NCBI GenBank assembly: GCA_965262715.1
Contig: OZ253553.1
Coordinates: 960,001-1,024,000, forward strand
DNA: 64,000 nucleotides
Direction of reading: 5' to 3'
Origin: Bdellovibrionales bacterium
Lineage (GTDB): Bacteria > Bdellovibrionota > Bdellovibrionia > Bdellovibrionales > JAUICD01
Shown here: one piece after another, positions 30,857-59,847 of the stretch
Position numbering within the stretch: position 1 is the stretch's first letter
Layout of the letters: every line of letters begins with the position of its first letter
Translations under genes and position numbers: made by a program
Notes under the pieces: model-generated
What the model was told of the DNA's origin: nothing
Database searches by the model: none
The model's input: only the letters and a program-made list of their open reading frames with translations

Positions 30857-31172
30857 ACCATTTACCCTATTATCTTATCATAAAAAATCTTCTAAACTAT
30901 CTTTATATAACCAAAGAAATCTAAGGAGTATAACTTATTCTAAAACTTTTTAAATTGGTATTTATAAATTCGATAGTTTTAATTTTAACTTTAAACTCTT
31001 CTATTCTTTTAGGTTTTGGGATGAGTGATCAAGAATTAGATCAAGCTATTCGCAAATACTTATCAATTTACAATAACTACCAGATAGATGAAAACATAGA
31101 TGAAAATATTGTTAATAATTTTACCAGATTAATTAGAGATCATTCTAATATGTTTAACTACCTTGCAGAACT

Positions 31173-33125
31173 CCTGAGTTTGACACTTAATTTGAATTTT
31201 CGTGATATTTTTTTCAAGGAATGTTGTATTTATAGTCATTAGCGGTTATTGTGTTTGTATTTTGGTCAAAAAGTGTAGTGTACTTATTTATCATACACTA
31301 CGCGTCATATACCTTATTTTCTTTTATTTTTTATATTTTTCTTGTAATGTATTTTTATGTTCATAAGGTCTACAAGAAATCCGAGAGGAGACATATATTA
31401 TCATCTTGTTGAGAGCTACAGATTAGGTTCTCAAGTGAAGCAAAGGATTCTAATGTCTTTAGGTAAAGCCGCGGATAAGGAAGTTAACTTGAAGAAGCTT
31501 CTAGAAGTATTATCTAAAGAGTTAGAGATAATTCCTGCTAGTAAGTTATTAAAAGAGATTGATGTAAAAGACACTTTTATTTTAGGTCCTTTGCTTATAA
31601 TAGATACTATTTTTAAACAATTAAATCTCTATAGATTATTAACAGATTTAAAACAGAAGCATCGTAAAGTGCAATTTGATTTTGTTAAGATTATTTTTAC
31701 ATTGGTTATAAGTCGTTTTGTAGAGCCTTGTTCTAAGCTTAAAGTATTTTCACACTGGCAGAAGTTATTTTATCCTGATTTTTTAGAAGGGGAGCTTCAT
31801 CTTCAAGACATTTATCGTTCTTTAGATATTCTAAGTAAGCATAAAGAAGATATAGAGAAGACTCTTTATATGCGAGGTAAGTCTCAATTAAGTTTTTTCA
31901 ATGAGTGTGATGTTATTTTGTATGATTTAACGACATTGAGATTTGAGAGTACCCGTGAGGATTTAGATAATCTTCGAAGGTTTGGTTATAGCAAAGAGAA
32001 GAGGAGTGATTGCACACAAGTGGTATTTGGACTTTTAGTAGATACAGAAGGTATGCCCTTAGGCTTTGATGTTTATCCTGGGAATACATTTGAAGGTAAA
32101 ACAATACCTTCAGTTATGACGAAGCTAAAAAAGAAGTTTAAGATCAGAAGATTTATATTAGTAGGAGATAGAGGTTTATTTTCTAATGAGAATCTCCAAT
32201 CATTAAAAGCAAAGGGAGATGAATTTATAGTAGGATTAAAGCTAGGTTTATTAAAGGATCGTCATGCAGAGATATACAATTTAAAGAATTTTAAATTTAT
32301 AAATGAAGATTTAGCTATATACGAGACAAGCTATAATAATGATCGTTGTATAATTACCTGGTCGAGAAAGAGAGCAGAACGAGATAAGAAAGTAAGAGAA
32401 GATATTCTATCTAAGATAGAAGCTCAATTATCAAAGAAGTCCATAAGCACAAGATCTTTTTTATCTAATAGTAATTATAAGAAGTATATTGTTCATCCTA
32501 AGAGTAAAGGCAAGCCTACTTTAAATAAGTCAGCTATAGAACAATCAGAGAGGACAGATGGTTTTTTTGGAATAATTACAAACACAGATTTAAGCTCTGA
32601 AGAGATTATAATGAACTATAAGCAATTATGGAAGGTAGAGAATTCATTTAGAGAGTTGAAGGGTACATTAAAGACACGTCCTATGTTCCACTGGACAGAT
32701 AAGAGGATATTAGGTCATTTAGTTGTGTGTTTTTTATCTTACTTATGTGAGGCTTATTTTGCAAAGAAGTTACATCAAAGAAACATCACATTAAAAGATA
32801 AAGCGATCACAGACAAGAGAATAAAGTCAAGGCCATTGAGTGTAGCGGAAGCTATGTCAAAGCTGAAAGAAGTACGAGCTATACCTGTCAGATATAAAAA
32901 CAAAACTATTTGGATAAGAACAGATATTTATGGCAATAACGCTGATGTATTTAAAGCTATAGGAGTTAAGATCCCATCAAAACAACTTAAAATTGAATCT
33001 ACTTAAACCTACAAACAATCTCTTAAATCTCTACCACAAAATCAAAATGTAGTGGTACAAAATCACACATCCACTGTAACTAACTAAAATAACTCAACTT
33101 TATTTTCGCAACTGTCAAACTCAGG
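31173..33125 (+). mobile_element. IS1634-family insertion sequence
   Basis: Terminal IRs cctgagtttgaca / tgtcaaactcagg; flanking 107-bp direct repeats 31066-31172 and 33126-33232. Confidence 0.93.
31357..33006 (+). CDS. IS1634-family DDE transposase
   Basis: YYHLVESYR, LYDLTTLRFES, FGYSKEKRSD, VGDRG, YKQLWKVENSFRELK, RPMFHWT. Confidence 0.93.
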   Translation: MFIRSTRNPRGDIYYHLVESYRLGSQVKQRILMSLGKAADKEVNLKKLLEVLSKELEIIPASKLLKEIDVKDTFILGPLLIIDTIFKQLNLYRLLTDLKQKHRKVQFDFVKIIFTLVISRFVEPCSKLKVFSHWQKLFYPDFLEGELHLQDIYRSLDILSKHKEDIEKTLYMRGKSQLSFFNECDVILYDLTTLRFESTREDLDNLRRFGYSKEKRSDCTQVVFGLLVDTEGMPLGFDVYPGNTFEGKTIPSVMTKLKKKFKIRRFILVGDRGLFSNENLQSLKAKGDEFIVGLKLGLLKDRHAEIYNLKNFKFINEDLAIYETSYNNDRCIITWSRKRAERDKKVREDILSKIEAQLSKKSISTRSFLSNSNYKKYIVHPKSKGKPTLNKSAIEQSERTDGFFGIITNTDLSSEEIIMNYKQLWKVENSFRELKGTLKTRPMFHWTDKRILGHLVVCFLSYLCEAYFAKKLHQRNITLKDKAITDKRIKSRPLSVAEAMSKLKEVRAIPVRYKNKTIWIRTDIYGNNADVFKAIGVKIPSKQLKIEST

Positions 33126-34055
33126 ATTTACAATAACTACCAGATAGATGAAAACATAGATGAAAATATTGTTAATAATTTTACCAGATTAATTAGAGAT
33201 CATTCTAATATGTTTAACTACCTTGCAGAACTTGAAACAGACGATGAGTTTTTATCTTATTTAGAAAAATATTCAGACTTAAAACTTAAGTTTACCGGTC
33301 ATCCTATAGATCCAGATGTTAAGGTGACATTTATTACGAATTCTTCCTCTTACTATAATAAAATTATTCAAGGAAAACCTGCTGTTTGTGATCCATTCAC
33401 TCGCATTATTTTTTTTGACCCTCATTTTTGGAGATCACAGGAAGGTTATGAGAGAACAAGGGAAAGAGTTTTATTCCATGAACTAGGACACTGTGACCTC
33501 TATAGAAATCACAGTTCATTAGAAGACTCTTCTTTTATGCGTGTTAGAGGTCTTGAGACATTGCTAGCTTCTCATCCTACAAATTTAGATGATATTTTTA
33601 ACAATTTATATGAAGAGCTTTTTGCTGAGCGAAATACTATACATATTAAATGCTATACTATAGAGATAGATGAAGATGGTTTAGAAAGAAGAATTACTCC
33701 AAATCATTGTATGCCAAACCAAAACAGAGCTTTCCAAGATTTTAAAGATATAAGTGTTCCAATTTTTCAGCAATTAATTGGGCTATTCTTTCTAAGAAAC
33801 TATAACAGTCGTTCTCTATAGAAATAGAAAAAATTTAGATGCCAAAATGGAAAGATGGCAGATTTATTCCATTAATTCCCAACACTATAAAATTATATAT
33901 ATCGATTACATAAAAAATAAGAAGTCTTGCAAGTAGCTCTTAAAAACCCTTCTGCTCCTAATTCTCCTATAAGATAATCAGCAATATCTATATGACTTTG
34001 ACTACTTGCATTTAAATATTTACATGCTGTGTTAAAAAAGAGGAATTTACCCTAC

Positions 34056-38942: not shown

Positions 38943-38986
38943 GTAATTTCTCCTCATAAATACAATTAAATATATCAATTTTTAAT

Positions 38987-39227
38987 TAGAACTCATCTCA
39001 AAATTAATTCTAATGTCCACGTTTTCAAAACGACCTCTTAACTTAAGTACCACATAAAAGGACTGTTTCACTCAAAATGGACCCTTCCGGCTTTCCGTAG
39101 AGCCACTATCGTGGCTCTCGTCAAGTCTGTCCATTTTGAGTAAGAAGCCATCTTTAGTTACGTTATGTTTTATATTTTGCAATTTCGTATTATTTACTGC
39201 TATCATGTATTTTTGAGATGGCTTCTA
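38987..39227. mobile_element. MITE-like element (IS1182-like ends) holding a short family-A-like structured core
   Basis: tagaactcatctcaaaa ... ttttgagatggcttcta; internal ctgtttcactcaaaatggac...gtccattttgagt at 39063-39141. Confidence 0.6.
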
Positions 39228-39315
39228 AATAATAATGCAAAAAAAATCTACACTTTGATGATTATGAATCATACTGTAATATTTGATAAAACTCAATAAT
39301 TTTAAATCACAATCC

Positions 39316-40704: not shown

Positions 40705-40801
40705 AAAATCCGGATTCGAGTGATTAAAATCCGGACATGACCTCAATTTTATAATTTAAAACCCACTTTTATCATCATTTTAACATGGCATGTATCTTGC
40801 T
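40705..40801 (+). promoter_or_regulatory. Sigma-54 promoter with tandem upstream aaatccgga boxes
   Basis: TGGCATGTATCTTGCT at 40786-40801 (GG-N10-GC); boxes at 40706 and 40727. Confidence 0.75.
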
Positions 40802-40909
40802 ATATCTTTATCGAGAAGTTTCATAGAAATACTCTAGTTCTACTTGAACTTTGATATTGAGGATTGGAGTTTTTTTGAAATACATGAATTCTGTAAGGGG
40901 TGCATACCA

Positions 40910-41866
40910 ATGACGAAACATCCTCATGATATATTTTTCAGGAGTTTTTTTTCTTCTGTTGAAAGAATAGAGAGATTGCTAAAGACAATATTACCTAAAG
41001 ATATTTTGAGTCTTTTTGATTTGTCTACATTAAAGATGGAGCCTAGCGTTATTGTTAAAAAATCAGAGATTAGGGTAGATATGGTATTAAGTATAATGCT
41101 TAAGAACTCTAAGAACAAAGTTAAGGTTATTTTAATTTTAGATCACAAAAGTTGGCCAGATAAGAATGTGATACAGCAATTACAAAAATATCAATTAATG
41201 ATAGTTAATGAATATTGTAAGAGTGAAGTTCTACATCCAGTACTTTGCATAATTTTTTATCATGGTGGTAAGAGATGGAAGAATCCCTCTTCTTTGCATG
41301 AAGATTGGGTATCTAGAGGTCTTTTTTCAAAAGAAGATTTTAAGAAACTTTCACCGTATCTTATGAATTTTAGACCTTATGTGTTTGACTTGTCCAAGTT
41401 TGATATACCAAAACGAGCTATGGATAGTATGAAGTCAATTCTATATGCATTTGAAGATATTTGGTCTTTAAGGAAGTGTAAGAATAGAAAAGAGAGAAAA
41501 GCAGTATTACGTAAAACTTTATTATCAGTAAAAAAAGACTTAAAATATGAGTCAAAACAGTATAGAATGGATGTGTTATTAGCTATAAAGCAATATTTTA
41601 TGAGTTACGACTCACAGATAGATGAAGATTTATTTAAGGAGGCTTCAAAAGAGGTCACAGAAGAATTAGGAGGAGACAATATGGTAGACGAGCTTGATTT
41701 TACTATGGCAGGTGTAATACAAAAAAAGGTGAAAGAGCAGGTACAGGAAAGCCAAAAAAAGATCACATTGAAGTTACTTAAGGCTGATATGAGTGTAGAA
41801 AAGGTATCTGAGATCACCGGTCTTTCAAAGCAGGAAATTCGAAAGTTTCAAGAAGATGATAGTTAG
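40910..41866 (+). CDS. Rpn-family (YhgA-like) PD-(D/E)xK nuclease, copy 1
   Basis: HPHDIFFR, DLSTLK, RVDMV, ILDHKS, IIFYHG...W, C-terminal VSEITGLS helix; start moved to ATG 40910. Confidence 0.88.
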   Translation: MTKHPHDIFFRSFFSSVERIERLLKTILPKDILSLFDLSTLKMEPSVIVKKSEIRVDMVLSIMLKNSKNKVKVILILDHKSWPDKNVIQQLQKYQLMIVNEYCKSEVLHPVLCIIFYHGGKRWKNPSSLHEDWVSRGLFSKEDFKKLSPYLMNFRPYVFDLSKFDIPKRAMDSMKSILYAFEDIWSLRKCKNRKERKAVLRKTLLSVKKDLKYESKQYRMDVLLAIKQYFMSYDSQIDEDLFKEASKEVTEELGGDNMVDELDFTMAGVIQKKVKEQVQESQKKITLKLLKADMSVEKVSEITGLSKQEIRKFQEDDS

Positions 41867-41874
41867 AGGATATT

Positions 41875-42876: not shown

Positions 42877-43830
42877 ATGATAAAGAGCAAAGAAAGTTTT
42901 CAAGTTGAGCATGATCAAACTGCTAAACTAGGTCTTAAGCATAAGGATAGGTTTAAAGATTTTTTAAAATTTGGATTGAGTTTTGAAAAATTTCAAGCTC
43001 TTGATTTGGATTGTCTTGAGTTTATTGATACAGAATTTTTACAAAAAGGTTTAAATGAAAAATTTCGATCTTACAGAGCTGATGTGATCGCTAAAGTTGG
43101 CTTAAAAACAGAAGACACAAAAGTTTTTGTAGGTATTATCGTAGAACATAAAAGTCATCATGAATCTGAAAAAAGGCTTTTTCTTCAAGCTTTAAGATAC
43201 AACTTAGCTCTTCTAGAAATAGATCTTTACCCTATTATAACTGTTTTGTTATTTCATGGAAAAGCTCCTTTAAATATATCTCCTAATTTACAAACAGTTT
43301 TTCATTTGAAATCAGAAACTAAGCGTATTTTTGGGACTTCTTCTTTAAGTTTTGGGCTAGATATGATAGATTTAAGAAAGATACCTAAGGAGGATATAAA
43401 AGGTAAGGCAGGTACGGCATCTGCTCTTTGTTATGCTTTAAAAACTTCTTTAGATATGACAGAAAATGATATTAAATCAGTATTTGAATTGTGTAAAAGA
43501 GATAGTAAAGATTCTGCAAGATATCGTGAATATGCTGGTTTTTTAAGTAGATATATGCTACAGAGTACAGAGTACACAAGGTTAGCACTTCATGCAATTG
43601 AACAAAAAATTATTACAAATAAGGAGGATCGGGTTATGCCAAGTACAGCTTCTAAAATATTTAATGAAGGAATAGAGCAGGGAATTGAAAAAGGAGTCGA
43701 ACAAGGGGCTGAGAAAGAGCGTAGAAAGATTGCTTTAAATATGTTAAAAACTGGTGTTGATATTCAAGTGATTCTTGATGCTACAAAGTTAAGCAGGGAA
43801 GAGTTAGAACAGCTTAAAAACAGTTTTTAA
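42877..43830 (+). CDS. Rpn-family nuclease, divergent copy
   Basis: EHDQTAK, YRADVI, IVEHKS, LLFHG, EGIEQGIEKG...IALNML...ATKLSREELEQL. Confidence 0.88.
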   Translation: MIKSKESFQVEHDQTAKLGLKHKDRFKDFLKFGLSFEKFQALDLDCLEFIDTEFLQKGLNEKFRSYRADVIAKVGLKTEDTKVFVGIIVEHKSHHESEKRLFLQALRYNLALLEIDLYPIITVLLFHGKAPLNISPNLQTVFHLKSETKRIFGTSSLSFGLDMIDLRKIPKEDIKGKAGTASALCYALKTSLDMTENDIKSVFELCKRDSKDSARYREYAGFLSRYMLQSTEYTRLALHAIEQKIITNKEDRVMPSTASKIFNEGIEQGIEKGVEQGAEKERRKIALNMLKTGVDIQVILDATKLSREELEQLKNSF

Positions 43831-43942
43831 TTTACTAAACTGTGTAGATAGTCACCAGATAAACAACCTCTAATATTATTTCTTATTTTTTAATGGTTTT
43901 ATTTCTATATGTTACCCATGTCCCTTGTAGTACAAAACTTAA

Positions 43943-44814
43943 GTTTGAGCTATTTTGTAACCTAATCTGTTTCACTAAAAATGCATCTAATTCTGTTTCA
44001 CTAAAAATGAATCCGCCTCTGGCGGTTTTCTGGCAATAAGCCCGACAGTCTTTTGCTGTCGGCAAATAGCTTATTGCCTAGAAAACATATTCATTTTGAG
44101 TAAAGGAGATACTCTTCTTTATTTAACAAAATGTTAAGGAAACTATTTATCATTTTTTATCGCTATGTTTGAGCTATTTTGTAACCTAATCTGTTTCACT
44201 AAAAATGCATCTAATTCTGTTTCACTAAAAATGAATCCGCCTCTGGCGGTTTTCTGGCAATAAGCCCGACAGTCTTTTGCTGTCGGCAAATAGCTTATTG
44301 CCTAGAAAACATATTCATTTTGAGTAAAGGAGATACTCTTCTTTATTTAACAAAATGTTAAGGAAACTATTTATCATTTTTTATCGCTATGTTTGAGCTA
44401 TTTTGTAACCTAATCTGTTTCACTAAAAATGCATCTGACCTCTGGTCACTTTCTGACAGTAAGCCTGAAGATTCACATCTTCAGCAAATAGCTTACTGCC
44501 TAGAAAGCTTGATGCATTTTTACTAGAAGAATATCCTCGTTAATTAACAAAATGTTAAGGAAATCGTTTATTATTTTTTTTATTCACTATGTTTGAGCTA
44601 TTTTGTATCCTAGTTTGTTTCACTAAAAATGCATCTAGCCTCTAGCTACTTTTTGGCAGTAAACCTGAAGATTCACATCTTCAGCAAATAGCTTACTGCC
44701 TAGAAAGCTTGATGCATTTTTACTAGAAGAATATCCTCGTTAATTAACAAAATGTTAAGGAAACTGTTTATCATTTTTTATCGCTATGTTTGAGCTATTT
44801 TGTACCCTAGTTTG
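43943..44814 (+). repeat. Tandem array of four family-A structured elements separated by five ~25-bp direct repeats
   Basis: gtttgagctattttgta(a/t/c)ccta starts at 43943, 44167, 44391, 44591, 44788 (periods 224, 224, 200, 197). Confidence 0.92.
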
Positions 44815-45269
44815 CAGGATATTCTAAAGTCACCAAAAGTCAATGGCTGACATTTTAAACGGTTTGTAAATTCTAAATTCGGCTTAGTCCAGCAGTGATA
44901 GACTCTGAAATCATTAAATGTATTGGTAGATATGATATCTCTGCAAGCTCTTACGGCGTAATTGCTTCTTAGTAACTTACAGTCTTCCTCTCTTTTGCAA
45001 ATACCTAAAAAAGACTCGATAACTCCACCTGTCCTTAAAATTTCCTCATGATTTATATCGTAGTTTTTGTAAATAATCATTTGAAAAGCTTCTGTATCTT
45101 CCTTTAAGCGCATGGATAGGCGAAAGTATTCTATCTGTCTAAACTGCTCTAAGTTAAAATGATCGATAAAGGTGTAGATAACTCCAACACCTACAATCAA
45201 AACCCAGCAATAAACCCAATATTTATATTTTCTAAGTATCCTTAAATACTTTATAAATGGCTTCATCAT
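44784..45269 (-). CDS. Pilin-associated membrane-anchored protein, copy 1
   Basis: One N-terminal TM helix, Cys-rich; nearly identical to 53718-54206; directly downstream of the pilin. Confidence 0.8.
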   Translation of the reverse strand: MMKPFIKYLRILRKYKYWVYCWVLIVGVGVIYTFIDHFNLEQFRQIEYFRLSMRLKEDTEAFQMIIYKNYDINHEEILRTGGVIESFLGICKREEDCKLLRSNYAVRACRDIISTNTFNDFRVYHCWTKPNLEFTNRLKCQPLTFGDFRISCKLGYKIAQT

Positions 45270-45285
45270 AAAACCTCATAAAATA

Positions 45286-45317
45286 AAAGCCATCTAGGTA
45301 GATACTTAGATGGCTTT
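45286..45317 (-). terminator. Hairpin terminator/attenuator after pilin 1
   Basis: aaagccatcta-N10-tagatggcttt followed by a T-rich tail on the - strand. Confidence 0.7.
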
Positions 45318-45364
45318 ATAAAGTGAATTTTTTAAACAAGATTACAAAGTTTTTTAAGATAAAA

Positions 45365-46138
45365 TTATTGAGTTCCATCTTCTTGGTTAAGCATTGTTTT
45401 ATTTTGATCCATAAGCCATACATCAATACCGTCACCGCCTATGTTCCCTATCATCCCTATACTAAAACTCACACTGTTTCTAGCTATATTCCTAAGAAGA
45501 ACCCCTCCATTAACAAGGGTACAAGTTGTAACAGGAGAAGTAGTACTAGCATTACAACTTGCACCCCCACTAGCTAAAGTACATGTACCGCTTCCTGAAG
45601 CAACAAGACAAGAGTTTAAACTACCAAAAGTAAGTGGTGTTGAGCCATTTACTTCATAATCTGCCCCTGCGGCTACTATACAACTACCTATATTACTTCC
45701 ATCTTGAAAAGATGAATGATGGGCTCCAGCACATAAGCTAAAAGTATCTATATCTTGCTCATCTGCTGCTAAAGGACCATTATAACCAGTTAATCTAGTT
45801 GTTTCACTATTAACAATATTACCTACTTCTATTGCAGAAAACCCTGCTAAATAATTTATGACTCCATCAGGAGAAAAGCCAATTTGACGTATATTAGTGG
45901 ACCCAAAGCCCCACTCAGATATAAAGGCTTTTTCAGCAGTAAAGATCCCTGACGCTATTATTTTTGCTTCTGACTGCCTTGCTTTTCTTTGGAAACGTTG
46001 ATAGTTCGGGATGGCAATGGCTGCTAAAATACCAATAATTGCAACAACCACCATTAATTCAACTAATGAAAAACCGCCTTGTCTACCAAAACGACTTCTC
46101 TTATACATCTTATATATTTTAAATCTTGATAATCCCAT
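45365..46138 (-). CDS. Type IV pilin, copy 1
   Basis: Prepilin site [34 protein letters not shown], several Cys; SD AAGGAG. Confidence 0.92.
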
Positions 46139-47118
46139 TTTTTATCTCCTTTATTATTATTCTTAATAACAATCATGCTTTGTTTTTTTCATCATTCATT
46201 AAGGTTGAAAAGCTTAAGATGGATGTTCAAAAAGTAATGAAATGCTGAGGTACTAAACATGTAAGCACTTATAACTTTAAGTCCAGTTAAAACTAGCCTT
46301 TACACTACTAATGGCTGAATTTTGACTGTGACTTATATATAAAAGTTACAGTATCAAATAGTTAAAATCACTCAACTATTTAACCTTCATTTCGCAAGCA
46401 AAAAAACTAGTCCTTTGTACCTTCCTAGTTTCGTCTTGGTTTAATGAAGATTTATCTTTCTACATATACGCACCCCCTGCTTTCTCTTTATGATTTTGTA
46501 AGAAGCATATTGTCATCTTACCTACTTATTACATGCATATATTTTAAATTGTTACTTATATATTATGCTATGCAGTTATGACTATACCTTCTGACACTAG
46601 TATATCGTAATTTACAAACAATAACTTAATATTTTTACTATAAAAATTAAATAATATAACACATTGAAATTACTTAATTAATTTAAAATTAATTTTACAA
46701 TATTTTATTATTATACACGGTATAATAGTGAAGATGTTCTAAATTGATAAATAACTTGTTTTCAACTGACACATTTTTATTTTTTCTAATACAAGAAAGG
46801 TTTCAGAAAAAAGAAGAGCTTAAAAATTGTTCTATTCTACTACATATATATACTGCATTTGACGCCAGCTAAGTATAAGGATTCATTACTATAATAGAAG
46901 TATAATTAATAAGTTCTTAATTAAGGATATCAAGCTTATTTAGAATTATCTGGAGCTTCACTGATAGAAGTTTATATTTATTTCATTTTCTAATAAAAAA
47001 TTAAAAAGAATTAAAGATAACAAATTCTTATTCTTTTTTTATTTTACTCTATTGACTTATTTAGAGAGAGCATATAGAGGAGTAAAGACAAATAATAAAC
47101 AAATATTGGAGTCTATTA

Positions 47119-52232: not shown

Positions 52233-52671
52233 GTTATTTTTTCTTCTATAAGTTCAATAAAAAATATCTTTCTGTAGATGCCTTTAAAATACCATTTTTA
52301 CATCTTATTCACTTTACAAATTCAACTTTAGTTTAGCAAAAACTACATAAGTCTTAAGCAATTAAGACCAGGTCAGGTAGTATAAAAATCTAGTTTTTTC
52401 CAGAAAGGGTGACAGCAAAATAGTTAAGTAATTTTAGCTACTTGATACTGTAACTTTTATATATAAGTCACAGTCAAAACTCAGCCATTGGTAGTGTAAG
52501 TGACTGAATCTAACTAAAAGACTTGAAGTTATAAGTGTCTACATGTTTAGTACCTCAGCATTTCATTACTTTTTGAACATCCATCTTAAGCTTTTCAACC
52601 TTAATGAATGATGAAAAAAACAAAGCATGATTGTTATTAAGAATAATAATAAAGGAGATAAAAAATGAGAT

Positions 52672-52839
52672 CTAGTTTCCCTCAAAATAAACCAGCCTCT
52701 AGAGGCGAGCCTCTAGCTGTTTTTGGGCAGTCAGCCTGAAGATTCACATCTTCAAGAAAATGCTGACTACCTCAAAAATCCGTTTATTTTAAGGAAGGAG
52801 ATACTCCTCATTTTTTAACACCATGTTAAGGAAATTATT
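52672..52839 (+). repeat. Family-A element inserted at the pilin 2 start, flanked by a ~25-bp duplication
   Basis: taataaaggagataaaaaatgagat (52647-52671) and taataaaaggagatagaaaatgagat (52840-52865); absent at the paralogous pilin 1 start. Confidence 0.88.
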
Positions 52840-52858
52840 TAATAAAAGGAGATAGAAA

Positions 52859-53620
52859 ATGAGATTATCAAGACTTAAAATATATAAGATGTATAGGAGA
52901 AGTCGTTTTGGTAGACAAGGCGGTTTTTCATTAGTTGAATTAATGGTGGTTGTTGCGATCATTGGTATCTTAGCAGCCATTGCCATTCCGAACTATCAAC
53001 GTTTCCAAAGAAAAGCAAGACAGAGTGAATCAAAGATACTAGCATCAGGCCTTTACAATGCTGAAAAGATGTTTATATCAGAGCATGGATTTGGTTCTAC
53101 AAATTTGCACCAAATTGGCTTTACTCCAGATGGTACTGTTAACTATATGGTTGGTTTTGCAGCAGTTGAAGGAGGTACAAAAATCAATCAATCCACTAGG
53201 CAAGTTGGTTTTCATGGCCCTTTACCTGAAAAGGCTGGTGGTGATCTTACTACATTTCATGTATGTGGAGGAGGTATTACTGGCACTCTTTCTTCTGACG
53301 CACCCGATTGTACAGTTGCAACGGGAGCAGATAAAGACACGAGTGGTGTTCCTTTAACTAACTTCCCAACTGGTATAGCTGATTTTCAAGCTTGTGCAAA
53401 TGCTAGCAACACAGGAAATTGTAGTCCTGCACCTGCATGTAATAATGTTGGATCTGGAGCTAACTGTAGTGTAGTAAGTGCTGCTGCTATGGATAATACA
53501 GGTAGAAACAATGTAAGTTTTTCAATTGGAGCTATAGCAGCAATAGGCGGCAACAAAGATGATGTCTGGGTTATGAGCCAGGATAAAACTTTAAAAAATG
53601 TTCAAGATGGAACTCAATAA
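52859..53620 (+). CDS. Type IV pilin, copy 2
   Basis: Same prepilin leader and N-terminal helix as copy 1, divergent middle, same QDGTQ end. Confidence 0.92.
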   Translation: MRLSRLKIYKMYRRSRFGRQGGFSLVELMVVVAIIGILAAIAIPNYQRFQRKARQSESKILASGLYNAEKMFISEHGFGSTNLHQIGFTPDGTVNYMVGFAAVEGGTKINQSTRQVGFHGPLPEKAGGDLTTFHVCGGGITGTLSSDAPDCTVATGADKDTSGVPLTNFPTGIADFQACANASNTGNCSPAPACNNVGSGANCSVVSAAAMDNTGRNNVSFSIGAIAAIGGNKDDVWVMSQDKTLKNVQDGTQ

Positions 53621-53669
53621 TTTTATCTTAAGAACTTTGTAATCTTGTTTTCAAAGAATTCATTTTTAT

Positions 53670-53701
53670 AAAGCCATCTAGGTAGATACTTAGATGGCTT
53701 T
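53670..53701 (+). terminator. Hairpin terminator/attenuator after pilin 2
   Basis: aaagccatcta-N10-tagatggcttt then tatttt. Confidence 0.7.
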
Positions 53702-53717
53702 TATTTTATGAGGTTTT

Positions 53718-54206
53718 ATGATGAAGCCATTTATAAAGTATTTAAGGATACTTAGAAAATATAAATATTGGGTTTATTGCTGGGTTTTGATTGTAGGTGT
53801 TGGAGTTGTCTACACTTTTATTGATCATTTTAATTTAGAACAACTTAGGCAAAAGGAATACTTTCGCCTATCCATGCACTTAAAGAAAGATACAGAAGCT
53901 TTTCAAATGATTATTTATAAAAACTACGATATAAATCATGAGGAAATTTTAAGGACAGGTGGAGCTATTGAGTCTTTTTTAGGTATTTGCAAAGGAGAGG
54001 AAGACTGTAAGTTACTAAGGAGCAATTACGCTGTAAGAGCTTGCAGAGATATCATATCTAGCAACACATTTGATACATTCAGAGTCTATCACTGTTGGAC
54101 AAAGCCAAATTTAGAGTTTACTAACCGTTTGAAATGCCAGCCATTAACTTTTGGTGATTTTAAAAGCTCTTGCAAACTAGGATACAAAATAGCTATGCAT
54201 ACATAA
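53718..54206 (+). CDS. Pilin-associated membrane-anchored protein, copy 2
   Basis: Near-identical to 44784-45269; ends CKLGYKIAMHT. Confidence 0.8.
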   Translation: MMKPFIKYLRILRKYKYWVYCWVLIVGVGVVYTFIDHFNLEQLRQKEYFRLSMHLKKDTEAFQMIIYKNYDINHEEILRTGGAIESFLGICKGEEDCKLLRSNYAVRACRDIISSNTFDTFRVYHCWTKPNLEFTNRLKCQPLTFGDFKSSCKLGYKIAMHT

Positions 54207-58051: not shown

Positions 58052-58217
58052 CGATTTCCTTAACATTTTATTAAATAATGAGGATAACCTTCTACTAAAA
58101 ATGCATCAGGCTTTCTAGGCAGTAAGCTACTTGCTGAAGATGTGAATCTTCAGGCTTACTGCCAGAAAGTAGCCAGAGGCTTACCTCGAGAGGCTAGATG
58201 CATTTTTAGTGAAACAG
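58052..58217 (-). repeat. Family-A element directly after the Rpn copy 2 stop
   Basis: Reverse complement ctgtttcactaaaaatgcatctagcc...ggcagtaagcctgaagattcacatcttcag...gcttactgcctagaaag...gatgcatttttagtag; begins 3-4 bp after TAA. Confidence 0.88.
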
Positions 58218-58220
58218 CTT

Positions 58221-59243
58221 TTACTTAGAATCCTTTTGAAAATTACGAATTTCTTGCTTTGAAAGACCTGTAATCTCAGATACCTTTTCTACACTCATAT
58301 CAGCTTTAAGTAACTTCAATGTGATCTCTTTTCGACCCTCTTGCACACCTTTCTGCATACCTTTCTGCATACCTTCCTGTATACCTTCCTTTATGCCTTC
58401 CTTTATGCCTTCCTGTACTTTCTTTCGTATTACACCAGCCATAGTATAATCAAGTTCGTCCATAATACTCTCTCCTCCTAATTCTTCTGTGACTTCTTTA
58501 GAAGCCTCCTTAAATAAGTCTTCATCTATCTGTGAGTCATAATCCATAAAATATTGCCTTATTGCTAATAACACATCTATTTTATACTGTTTTGACTCAT
58601 TTTTTAAGTCTTTTTTTACTGATAATAAAATTTTACGCAATACTGCTTTTCGCTCTTTTCTGTTCTTACACTCTTTTAAAGACCAAATATCTTCAAATGC
58701 GTATAAAATCGATTTCATACTATCCATCGCTTGTTTTGCTATATCAAACTTGGATAAGTCGAACACATAAGGTTTAAAATTCATAAGGTATGGTGAAAGT
58801 TTCTTAAAATCTTCTTCTGAAAAAAGACCTCTAGATATCCAATCCTCATGCAAAGAAGATGGACTCTTCCATTTCTTATCACCATGATAAAAAATTATGC
58901 AAAACACTGGAAGTGGAAGTTCATGCTTACTCTTACAATACTCATTGACTATCATTAATTGGTATTTTTGTAATTGCTGTATCACATTCTTATCTGGCCA
59001 GCTTTTGTGATCTAAAACTAAAATAATCTTAGCTCTCTTCTTAGAATTCTTGAGCATTATACTTAATACTAAATCTGCTCTAATCTCAGATTTTTTAACA
59101 ACAACATTAGGCTCTATTTTTAATGTAGATAAATCAAAAAGATCTGAAATATCCTTAGATAAAATTGTCTTTAATAATCTCTTTATTTTCTCAACTGTAG
59201 AAAAAATACTCCTAAAAAATATATCATGAGGATGTTTCGTCAT
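58221..59243 (-). CDS. Rpn-family nuclease, inverted close paralog of copy 1
   Basis: Near-identical protein to 40910-41866 with an expanded EGIK/EGMQ/KGMQ repeat tract. Confidence 0.88.
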   Translation of the reverse strand: MTKHPHDIFFRSIFSTVEKIKRLLKTILSKDISDLFDLSTLKIEPNVVVKKSEIRADLVLSIMLKNSKKRAKIILVLDHKSWPDKNVIQQLQKYQLMIVNEYCKSKHELPLPVFCIIFYHGDKKWKSPSSLHEDWISRGLFSEEDFKKLSPYLMNFKPYVFDLSKFDIAKQAMDSMKSILYAFEDIWSLKECKNRKERKAVLRKILLSVKKDLKNESKQYKIDVLLAIRQYFMDYDSQIDEDLFKEASKEVTEELGGESIMDELDYTMAGVIRKKVQEGIKEGIKEGIQEGMQKGMQKGVQEGRKEITLKLLKADMSVEKVSEITGLSKQEIRNFQKDSK

Positions 59244-59351
59244 TGGTATGCACCTCTTACAAAATTCGTGTATTTCAAAAAAACTCCAATCCTCAATATC
59301 AAAGTTCAAGTAGAATTAGAGTACTTCTATGAAACCTCTCGATAAAGATAT

Positions 59352-59446
59352 AGCAAGATACATGCCATGTTAAAATGATGATAAAAGTGGGTTTTAAATT
59401 ATAAAATTGAGATCATGTCCGGATTTTAATCATCCGAATCCGGATT
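59352..59446 (-). promoter_or_regulatory. Sigma-54 promoter module, copy 3
   Basis: agcaagatacatgcca at 59352-59367 (TGGCATGTATCTTGCT on -) and two tccggattt boxes. Confidence 0.75.
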
Positions 59447-59847
59447 TCCTATATCCTCTAAATAATTTTAAACATAAATAATGAATCTCACTTAAAATAA
59501 AAGTTTAAAAATAAAATCAAAACTGCTTCATTAAAGAAAGTTTAAAATGATGAATATACAGTAAATATTCTCTATCTATACTTTTCTCCTTTATCCTTTA
59601 GTAGGGAGAAAAAAATAAGGAAAACTCAAAACAGATAGACTGCTAAATTCCCCGCTTTTCTAGTACTGCCAGCATTAGGAAATACCAATTAGGTAAGTTG
59701 AACTCAGGGAAATCAGTAAACAACAAAATTCTTAAAATTATAAGGGTTGCATAAATCCAATAAATCATCAAAAATTGATTTAAACAATGATAGAGCAATA
59801 TAAATCTATTGGCAGCAAAAACTAAAGCATCTAAAAAATAAACCATT

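Follow-up and report, generated by a model that had tools for sequence, protein, structure and literature searches.

How non-coding, palindromic repeats move in bacteria without a matching transposase is a question raised by YPAL and, as far as the accessible text on them goes, by the direct repeats of IS1549/IS1634 (PMC2266710), and it is posed here by a tandem array at 43943–44814 of the window, i.e. the whole stretch of 64,000 nucleotides that was analysed. The window belongs to a 2.94-Mb genome (G000); bare coordinates are positions in the window and those prefixed "G000:" are positions in the genome. A sister genome in 129 stretches (G001), whose proteins show a median identity of 61% to those of G000, is the second carrier of the element. 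Both genomes are about 90–93% complete by markers, which limits all negative results with enzyme profiles in them. Hundreds of junctions, filled and empty paralogous sites, polymorphic arrays and two nearly complete genomes without a match to the usual enzymes make this lineage one in which comparison can test the question.

The tandem array is confirmed as real, with five copies of about 25 bp of the last codons of a gene and four elements of about 150 bp between them (Table 1), and all five repeats and four elements that a sequence-only reading had described were located. That reading gave 170–200 bp for the elements; their number stands, but the element proper is 149–151 bp, and the rest of each unit is a linker (22–25 nt) and, in units 1 and 2, an extra stub of 26 nt, before the separator. 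The first 22 bp or so of the element had been said to be repeated in units 1 and 2, and the stub is indeed present but matches the start of elements 3 and 4 and not of 1 and 2. The identity with a period of 224 is exact over 270 nt from 43943, up to 44436, in agreement with the identity claimed for units 1 and 2. The outermost copy is still in frame and reads L-G-Y-K-I-A-Q-T-stop (TAA) on the minus strand, as had been noted, and it is likely to be the original end of the gene. Separator T3 and the start of element 4 have TG in common, and the fold z for the unit with element 4 is -4.2 as DNA and -4.9 as minus-strand RNA. A 21-mer from the separator, searched with up to three mismatches, occurs only at the five array sites in G000 and nowhere in the 129 stretches of G001, indicating that the separator does not travel with the element and is the local gene end, as had been proposed.

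Table 1. Features of the array and of its surroundings, with positions in the window.
Feature	Position	Strand	Remarks
Rpn/YhgA-like (Transposase_31) nuclease gene	42877..43830	+	left of the array; candidate nick source
Outermost gene-end copy	43939..43967	-	TAA stop; separator T0 = 43943-43967
Separators T0-T4	43943-43967, 44167-44191, 44391-44415, 44591-44615, 44788-44812		T4 lies inside the gene 44784-45269 (-)
Stub 1	43968..43993	+	26 nt: first 21 nt of an element-3/4-type copy and 5 extra nt
Element 1	43994..44144	+	151 bp; nearest relative G000:207966 (90%)
Linker 1	44145..44166	+	22 nt; looks like a decayed element tail
Separator T1	44167..44191	+	identical to T0
Stub 2, element 2 (44218-44368) and linker	44192..44390	+	exact duplicate of unit 1
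Separator T2	44391..44415	+	identical to T0
Element 3	44416..44565	+	93% to element 4 and 93% to the copy at 58053-58216
Linker 3 and separator T3 (44591-44615)	44566..44615	+	linker 25 nt, a sloppy version of linker 4
Element 4	44616..44765	+	150 bp; long three-way-junction hairpin
Linker 4 (44766-44787) and separator T4 (44788-44812)	44766..44812	+	linker supplies the present TAG stop; T4 forms the working last codons
Gene of a 161-aa hypothetical protein	44784..45269	-	no Pfam or NCBIfam match
Solitary element before a pilin gene	52675..52835	+	imperfect target duplication of 25-28 bp
Solitary copy of the element-3/4 subfamily	58053..58216	-	just behind an Rpn gene

Of the gene that carries the array there are 11 paralogs, of which 5 directly follow a pilin gene, and no relative of its protein was found in metagenomes. 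For the paralog at 53718–54206 the same last codons without an array had been reported; it is free of the element and has KLGYKIA in common, but it ends with MHT-stop. The paralogous site of the insertion at 52675, located around 46132–46160, is empty. The array itself is probably neutral because the gene stays intact in spite of the duplication, and promoter-like sites occur at chance level. The neighbourhood also contains two inverted duplications, one of an Rpn gene (40706–41874 and 58213–59447) and one of a cassette with the pilin and its downstream gene (44793–46381 and 52418–54194), in which the pilin start is conserved and the middle has diverged.

The element was searched for with a profile built from the G000 copies, and with an RNA model across 121 genomes of the order, three of which were matched. 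The profile gave 459 matches in G000 (282 of full length) and 1,172 in G001 (728 of full length). Genome G004 has the element on three contigs only (C1, C4 and C11), which are likely to be mis-binned from a close relative of G000, since C4 and C11 are about 88–95% identical to G000 in syntenic blocks. A pattern scan of genomes gave at least 152 loci, and the 80 of 152 listed are all from one record, so that there may be further carriers. Pattern scans of metagenome and viral contigs and BLAST of the element against phages and plasmids gave no match, and Rfam at the gathering score found only the tRNAs of the window, with weak chance matches over the array. No description of the element family was found in the literature covered, a coverage that mostly leaves out subscription papers.

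The copies are intergenic (one of 229 clusters lies inside an ORF), 12 of the 38 tRNA genes have an element within 150 bp, and no replichore bias is evident. The helices co-vary almost purely by Watson-Crick swaps among 169 non-redundant copies with a mean identity of 71%, and two-sided changes are found at 29 of the 37 predicted pairs in a 28-copy alignment. The minus strand is the better RNA fold, and G-T tolerance favours it in G000 (67 vs 116 cells, which are not independent), significantly so there only; G001 shows no clear lean (114 vs 133 cells), and the pairs split 13 to 6 in both genomes. The tail has GTA(G/A) before a weak hairpin, the fourth base being G in only about 50%, and the ends show a weak terminal complementarity of about 10 bp. 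Other repeat families host the element or have its outer stem, at 38983–39246 and at many other loci, and composites with these families recur at distant loci. Two loci of G001 (L084 and L141) contain five elements head to tail without separators. In G000 the element is also found in or at the end of CRISPR arrays (G000:482120, 476742, 490459, 2607208-2608430 and 2693651), with part of the repeat duplicated.

The units of the array differ in their relatives. Elements 3 and 4 are the closest relatives of one another (93%), followed by the copy at 58053; they form the variant, distinct from elements 1 and 2, that had been recognized, but they are not identical to each other. Element 1 shows 81–84% identity to them and 90% (60/64 in the middle) to G000:207966, about 796 kb away, which suggests that it came from the distant locus and not from elements 3 or 4. 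Units 1 and 2 are a plain local duplication, an alternative that the sequence-only reading had offered, the 224-bp copy being exact. On a profile of the element tail (post hoc) the linker has a score of 9.6, against 100,000 background draws of which 0.026% reach 8 and 0.012% reach 10, and it resembles a decayed element tail; linker 3 scores -0.7 on the same profile. A flank carried along from another locus was rejected as the source for this array, since the linker is found at no other locus.

The likely history of the array is as follows. The end of the gene would have been duplicated by an early insertion, whose tail stayed behind as the linker that also supplies the present TAG, and the subfamily of elements 3 and 4 would have come next. 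Element 1 would have arrived from the distant locus and landed in the start of element 3, the stub being the likely remnant of an older copy, and unit 1 would finally have been copied exactly. With independent arrivals and local duplication mixed, the proposal of repeated insertion with a target duplication at each event holds only in part: the separator is the local target and an arrival from outside is indicated, but units 1 and 2 are a local copy and the separators are preceded by linkers. Growth from the left end agrees with the youngest units, which sit there.

Junctions throughout the genomes show what is fixed and what is variable. The left end of the element is fixed; the preceding base is C in 56% and T in 35% of 198 distinct flanks and is often common to the target, and 0–5 extra bases occur at the left junction. 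The right flanks are poor in G (2–11% at +4 to +18 in 208 flanks), and right-hand linkers are missing at empty paralogous sites. Fold-back pairing of the right flank with the element tail is found in 66 of 157 cases in G000 (42%, against 12% for random and 24% for own-shuffled flanks) and in 34 of 65 cases in G001 (52%, against 11% and 17%), where the linkers are stereotyped and partly inherited, so that part of the signal may be the terminal hairpin of the element itself. After the linker the target resumes either upstream, giving a duplication of about 25–28 bp (52675), about 24 bp (CRISPR repeat) or about 62–70 bp (G000:77432), or downstream, with a loss of a few to about 30 bp in several filled/empty pairs. 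A flanking duplication is present at only 9–10 of 111 solitary copies without a stub (0.6–1.1% in shuffled pairings; 35 stubbed solitary copies excluded), three of these being CRISPR-repeat sites related to each other and one the first unit of an array. The CRISPR-like target duplication suggested earlier is not supported by these junctions, with duplications of varying length that about 90% of the solitary copies lack, and with some deletions.

A test of whether the separators in other arrays equal their local target had also been advised. This applies to 15 of 35 multi-element clusters (separators of at least 15 nt): the right flank begins with the last separator, and the left break of the unit lies within about 5 nt of the left end of the element. 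The other 20 of the 35 do not follow the rule, and in 11 of the 15 the left flank fails to match over the full separator. The separators appear to be composed of an old element tail and target. Exact C|T joins are seen at some array breakpoints (e.g. G000:2127736, 2133072 and 1809244) and extra bases at others. A second array with the last codons of a gene as separator is located at G000:2842752-2843519 (L009) between ribosomal protein genes, presumably rpsQ and rplN from their translations, and the orthologous site on contig C11 of G004 has a different set of units. The stubs are mostly the remains of older copies: 57 of 64 distinct ones are unlike the element behind them, and 30 of 64 break off at one and the same small hairpin loop, in a motif search that includes some chance AT-rich matches. 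An origin of the stubs in abortive re-initiation was rejected, as only 7 of 64 match the following element. Flank sharing between distant copies is roughly symmetric, on the left in 81 and on the right in 69 of 282 in G000 and in 215 and 332 of 689 in G001 (at least 200 nt: 10 and 8 in G000, 69 and 48 in G001), and a long one-sided capture is thus not supported.

Sequencing runs were checked for pieces of the array; X1 may be the source sample, X5 belongs to a second study and X8 to another, and no contig or read in any run covers the full array. In X1 the piece from units 1/2 has a depth of 18.2 and single-copy pieces have 8.6–9.6, supporting two copies. The listed junction pieces are exact in X5, where the unit-1/2 piece has a depth of 2.3 (against 2.0–2.1) and the piece shared by elements 3 and 4 a depth of 4, which at this low depth suggests three units with about one of type 1. 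Run X7 contains the stub with element 1 exactly over 177 nt at a depth of 12.2 (against 2.9), together with separator variants, which suggests that type 1 has about four units there. A single 143-nt contig of X8 follows the left flank to 43964 and continues for 15 letters, 14 of which are those of the gene body at 44810–44824. It probably represents an allele without elements, in which there is one repeat and the outer TAA stop, the junction being a single contig below the 31-letter bridging rule. A joint in X9 links 43827 to 44611, the short side having 21 letters. Read depth suggests 0, 3 and 4 units in different samples, and the search for empty or shorter arrays in related strains that had been advised has thereby given a probable empty allele (X8, one contig) and a depth-suggested three-unit array (X5). 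An assembly artefact, of units 1–2 or of the whole array, would account for the exact 224-bp duplication and for the lack of a spanning read or contig, but is hardly credible with the twofold depth in X1, the exact junction pieces in X5 and the many similar arrays across the genome, also at the orthologous rpsQ-rplN site on the G004 contig.

An enzyme that could move the element was looked for in both carriers. The absence of cas1, integrase and reverse transcriptase noted earlier is true of the window, but outside it the genome encodes five cas1 genes, all in cas operons with none solo or near the array, and three RTs (a group II RT with its broken copy, and a retron St85 RT) that are missing from G001. 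G000 also has one IS200-type Y1, and G001 has three cas1 loci. G001, the richer of the two in copies of the element, lacks homologs of the RTs, Y1, IS30, IS5, IS3 and IS1595 of G000; RVT_1 gave no match in G001 and G004, and tblastn with both intact G000 RTs gave none in G001. RAYT (NF047646) was without match in G000 and G001, and Y1_Tnp in G001, and RAYT-like matches are present in the element-free G002. Of the IS110 profiles PF02371 had no match in G000 and PF01548 none in G000 and G001; PF04986 (Y2, as in IS91/ISCR rolling-circle elements) matched 0 of 5, with a control that was also without match anywhere, and Rep_trans, AEP primase, DinB and LigD primase-polymerase profiles matched nothing in G000 or G001. 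The only match of the TnpB zinc-finger profile is a large CRISPR effector, and there are only two tyrosine recombinases in each genome. Split elements enclosing a gene gave no autonomous partner, and genes flanked by elements in both genomes include no enzyme besides Rpn and four-helix-bundle genes. The ends of IS1634 (two families), IS30, IS256 and IS3 differ from those of the element; of the others, IS5 and IS1595 are without homolog in G001. The mobile-type families common to G000 and G001 are Rpn, IS1634, IS256, cas1 and the four-helix-bundle genes, and from profile and end comparisons there appears to be no RT, RAYT/HUH, IS110 or end-matching transposase common to both.

Some side observations were made in these searches. 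Five CRISPR-Cas loci are present in the 2.9-Mb genome (G000:483421, 1357607, 2349300, 2451744 and 2589828), with genes of 1,644 and 1,334 aa that we take from their translations to be Cas9-like and Cas12a-like, respectively. A 590-aa protein at G000:2650522-2652294 (L002) is a fusion of the St85 RT with an effector domain of the retron St85 type. At 31066–33232 of the window there is an IS1634-type element (549-aa DDE) with an exact direct repeat of 107 bp at both sides; the IS1634 copies here make a good system for the unexplained long repeats of that family.

Two of the common families are found near the element. Rpn is expanded in both carriers and adjoins the element in 34 of 40 cases in G001 vs 4 of 32 in G000 (background 13%), and G003 has 16 Rpn matches and no element. 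Four-helix-bundle genes (TIGR02436) are multi-copy in G000 (G000:923206-923634 and others), G001 (L252, L348) and G004, and are flanked by short repeats of a 7-bp type. All 9 intact ones of G001 have an element just downstream, mostly antisense, and the element interrupts the gene at the same site in G000 and G001, near codon 105–108. The main contigs of G004 contain 19 matches, and none of the five loci examined has an element.

The element is judged to be a non-autonomous palindromic mobile repeat, and the account to which we give an even chance is that the array is a pile-up of this non-coding folded repeat, copied into nicked DNA by template switching of a polymerase. Such a route agrees best with the fixed end that primes by microhomology, the loosely joined far end, the target duplications or deletions of varying size and the old copies that are overwritten. 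The free 3' end of the target would pair over 1–3 bases, C-T or C-T-G in many cases, with a single-stranded copy of the element at its fixed left end, and for this copy the minus strand is weakly favoured and DNA is likelier than RNA because the sister genome lacks an RT. The strand would be extended through the element, and the new 3' end at its right end would be resolved sloppily, by fold-back or by added pyrimidine-rich bases, and would then anneal to the target by microhomology, upstream to give a duplication (25 bp here) or downstream to give a small deletion. Old copies should be preferred landing sites, in or beside them, and where the new end rejoins at the conserved tail of an old copy upstream, the tail remnant plus target would be repeated as the separator; the same route may copy a unit locally, as in units 1 and 2. 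The expanded Rpn/YhgA nucleases would be the most plausible source of nicks, though weakly so. In the accessible part of their paper Kingston et al. report that RpnA leaves 3'-OH ends that prime a polymerase, propose template switching, and find no sequence or cruciform preference (PMC5350276). This lack of preference, the Rpn genes of G003 and the low adjacency in G000 speak against such a role.

Rather unlikely is a REP/BIME-like origin. An HUH enzyme of the RAYT type, which has since been lost or has diverged beyond detection, would cut at C|T, and the element with its right flank would be added as a new unit by rolling-circle-like synthesis. The exact C|T joins at several breakpoints fit it, and the BIME amplification model of Ton-Hoang et al., as far as its accessible text goes, uses C|T cuts with one unit added at a time and predicts the array rule, and also allows RAYT genes to vanish while REPs persist (PMC3333891). 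The identical young units, however, argue for current activity, the junctions with extra bases, linkers and deletions are unlike clean strand transfer, RAYT gives no match in the two carriers yet is matched in a genome free of the element, and besides the IS200-type Y1 missing from G001 there is no Y2 (with a matchless control) or Rep_trans match. Priming at a fixed end, a far end closed sloppily by fold-back, and duplications of variable length are traits of retroelements such as R2 and L1. The element has the same look, its minus strand folds better as RNA and the nine intact four-helix-bundle genes of G001 have an element downstream, so the element might move by reverse transcription of a minus-strand RNA that starts at the 3' end of this RNA where the target is nicked, an Avd-like four-helix-bundle protein possibly serving as RNA chaperone. 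We regard this as improbable, as no RVT_1 match is found in G001 or G004, the RTs of G000 have no G001 homolog, the covariation is almost purely Watson-Crick and the five G004 loci examined, of 19 matches, are element-free.

Slightly less probable still is a MITE moved in trans by an IS1634-family transposase, which makes long variable direct repeats, with arrays formed by slippage or unequal recombination. IS1634-type transposases are present in both carriers, their exact duplications in G000 are 45, 85, 310, 230, 236 and 292 bp besides the 107 bp in the window, and the element has its weak terminal complementarity; direct repeats of IS1549/IS1634 are given as 8–514 bp, by a mechanism without a model in the accessible text (PMC2266710). 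But IS1634 ends are unlike those of the element, its duplications are exact and flush where the element has linkers and deletions, and a DDE enzyme would not require such strong covariation inside the element. Acquisition of the element as a spacer by Cas1(-Cas2), with a fixed repeat duplicated each time, is very improbable and largely refuted by the variable junctions. The cas1 genes of both genomes, the copies inside CRISPR arrays and the youngest units at one end would suit it; against it every cas1 lies in a cas operon, the duplication varies in length and is mostly absent, only about 24 of the 28 bp of the repeat are duplicated in the CRISPR arrays, and units 1 and 2 are identical.

By analogy the element seems to work most like YPAL and BIME arrays. 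According to the summary of De Gregorio 2006 in an accessible source, YPAL/RU-2 repeats are about 150–170 bp, intergenic and highly structured, without TA ends or a known mobiliser, and with variable target duplications of 3–26 bp at targets near dyad symmetry (PMC2229807). By that description the present element is alike in its length, its intergenic position, its high degree of structure, its targets near dyad symmetry and the lack of a known mobiliser, and also in its variable duplication, found at about 1/11 of the solitary copies, its internal inverted repeats and its lack of TA ends; unlike YPAL its duplications reach at least 70 bp or give way to deletions, linkers are added, and it nests in older copies, forms arrays and folds as a co-varying three-way junction. 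With REP/BIME and their RAYT (TnpA-REP), in the text accessible, it shares hundreds of structured intergenic copies, dispersal followed by local amplification, C|T joins at some junctions and a strain-variable unit number (PMC3333891), but it is a single 150-bp three-way junction and not REP pairs, RAYT gives no match in the carriers, and many junctions have extra bases or linkers. The variable-length target duplication resembles IS1634/IS1549 as far as described in the accessible text (PMC2266710), and such IS are present in both genomes, but the element is non-coding, its ends differ and its duplications are not flush. The likeness to CRISPR is superficial: spacer acquisition gives repeat-cargo-repeat with the youngest unit at one end, as in this array, which however has no fixed repeat, cargo of one family, an exact unit duplication and no dedicated cas1. 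By the traits compared, the array and its element fall outside CRISPR, casposons (cas1), RAYT, IS110/IS1111, retroelements and IS-matched MITEs.

The novelty lies in the rules for the junctions, in an allele that is probably empty and in excluding the usual enzymes. A wider reading, which we hold to be rather doubtful, is that of a still-active selfish repeat with more than 1,000 copies and no recognised transposase, integrase or RT, whose folded single-stranded template captures free 3' ends from Rpn nicks or through chaperoning by four-helix-bundle proteins, is written in by the host polymerase, overwrites older copies and builds arrays. If true, it would explain how orphan bacterial repeats such as YPAL move, and two protein families that are poorly understood would gain a function. 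The template-switch route, if correct, would mean mobility without a dedicated enzyme, and a diverged HUH protein, if found, would make this a new RAYT-like system.
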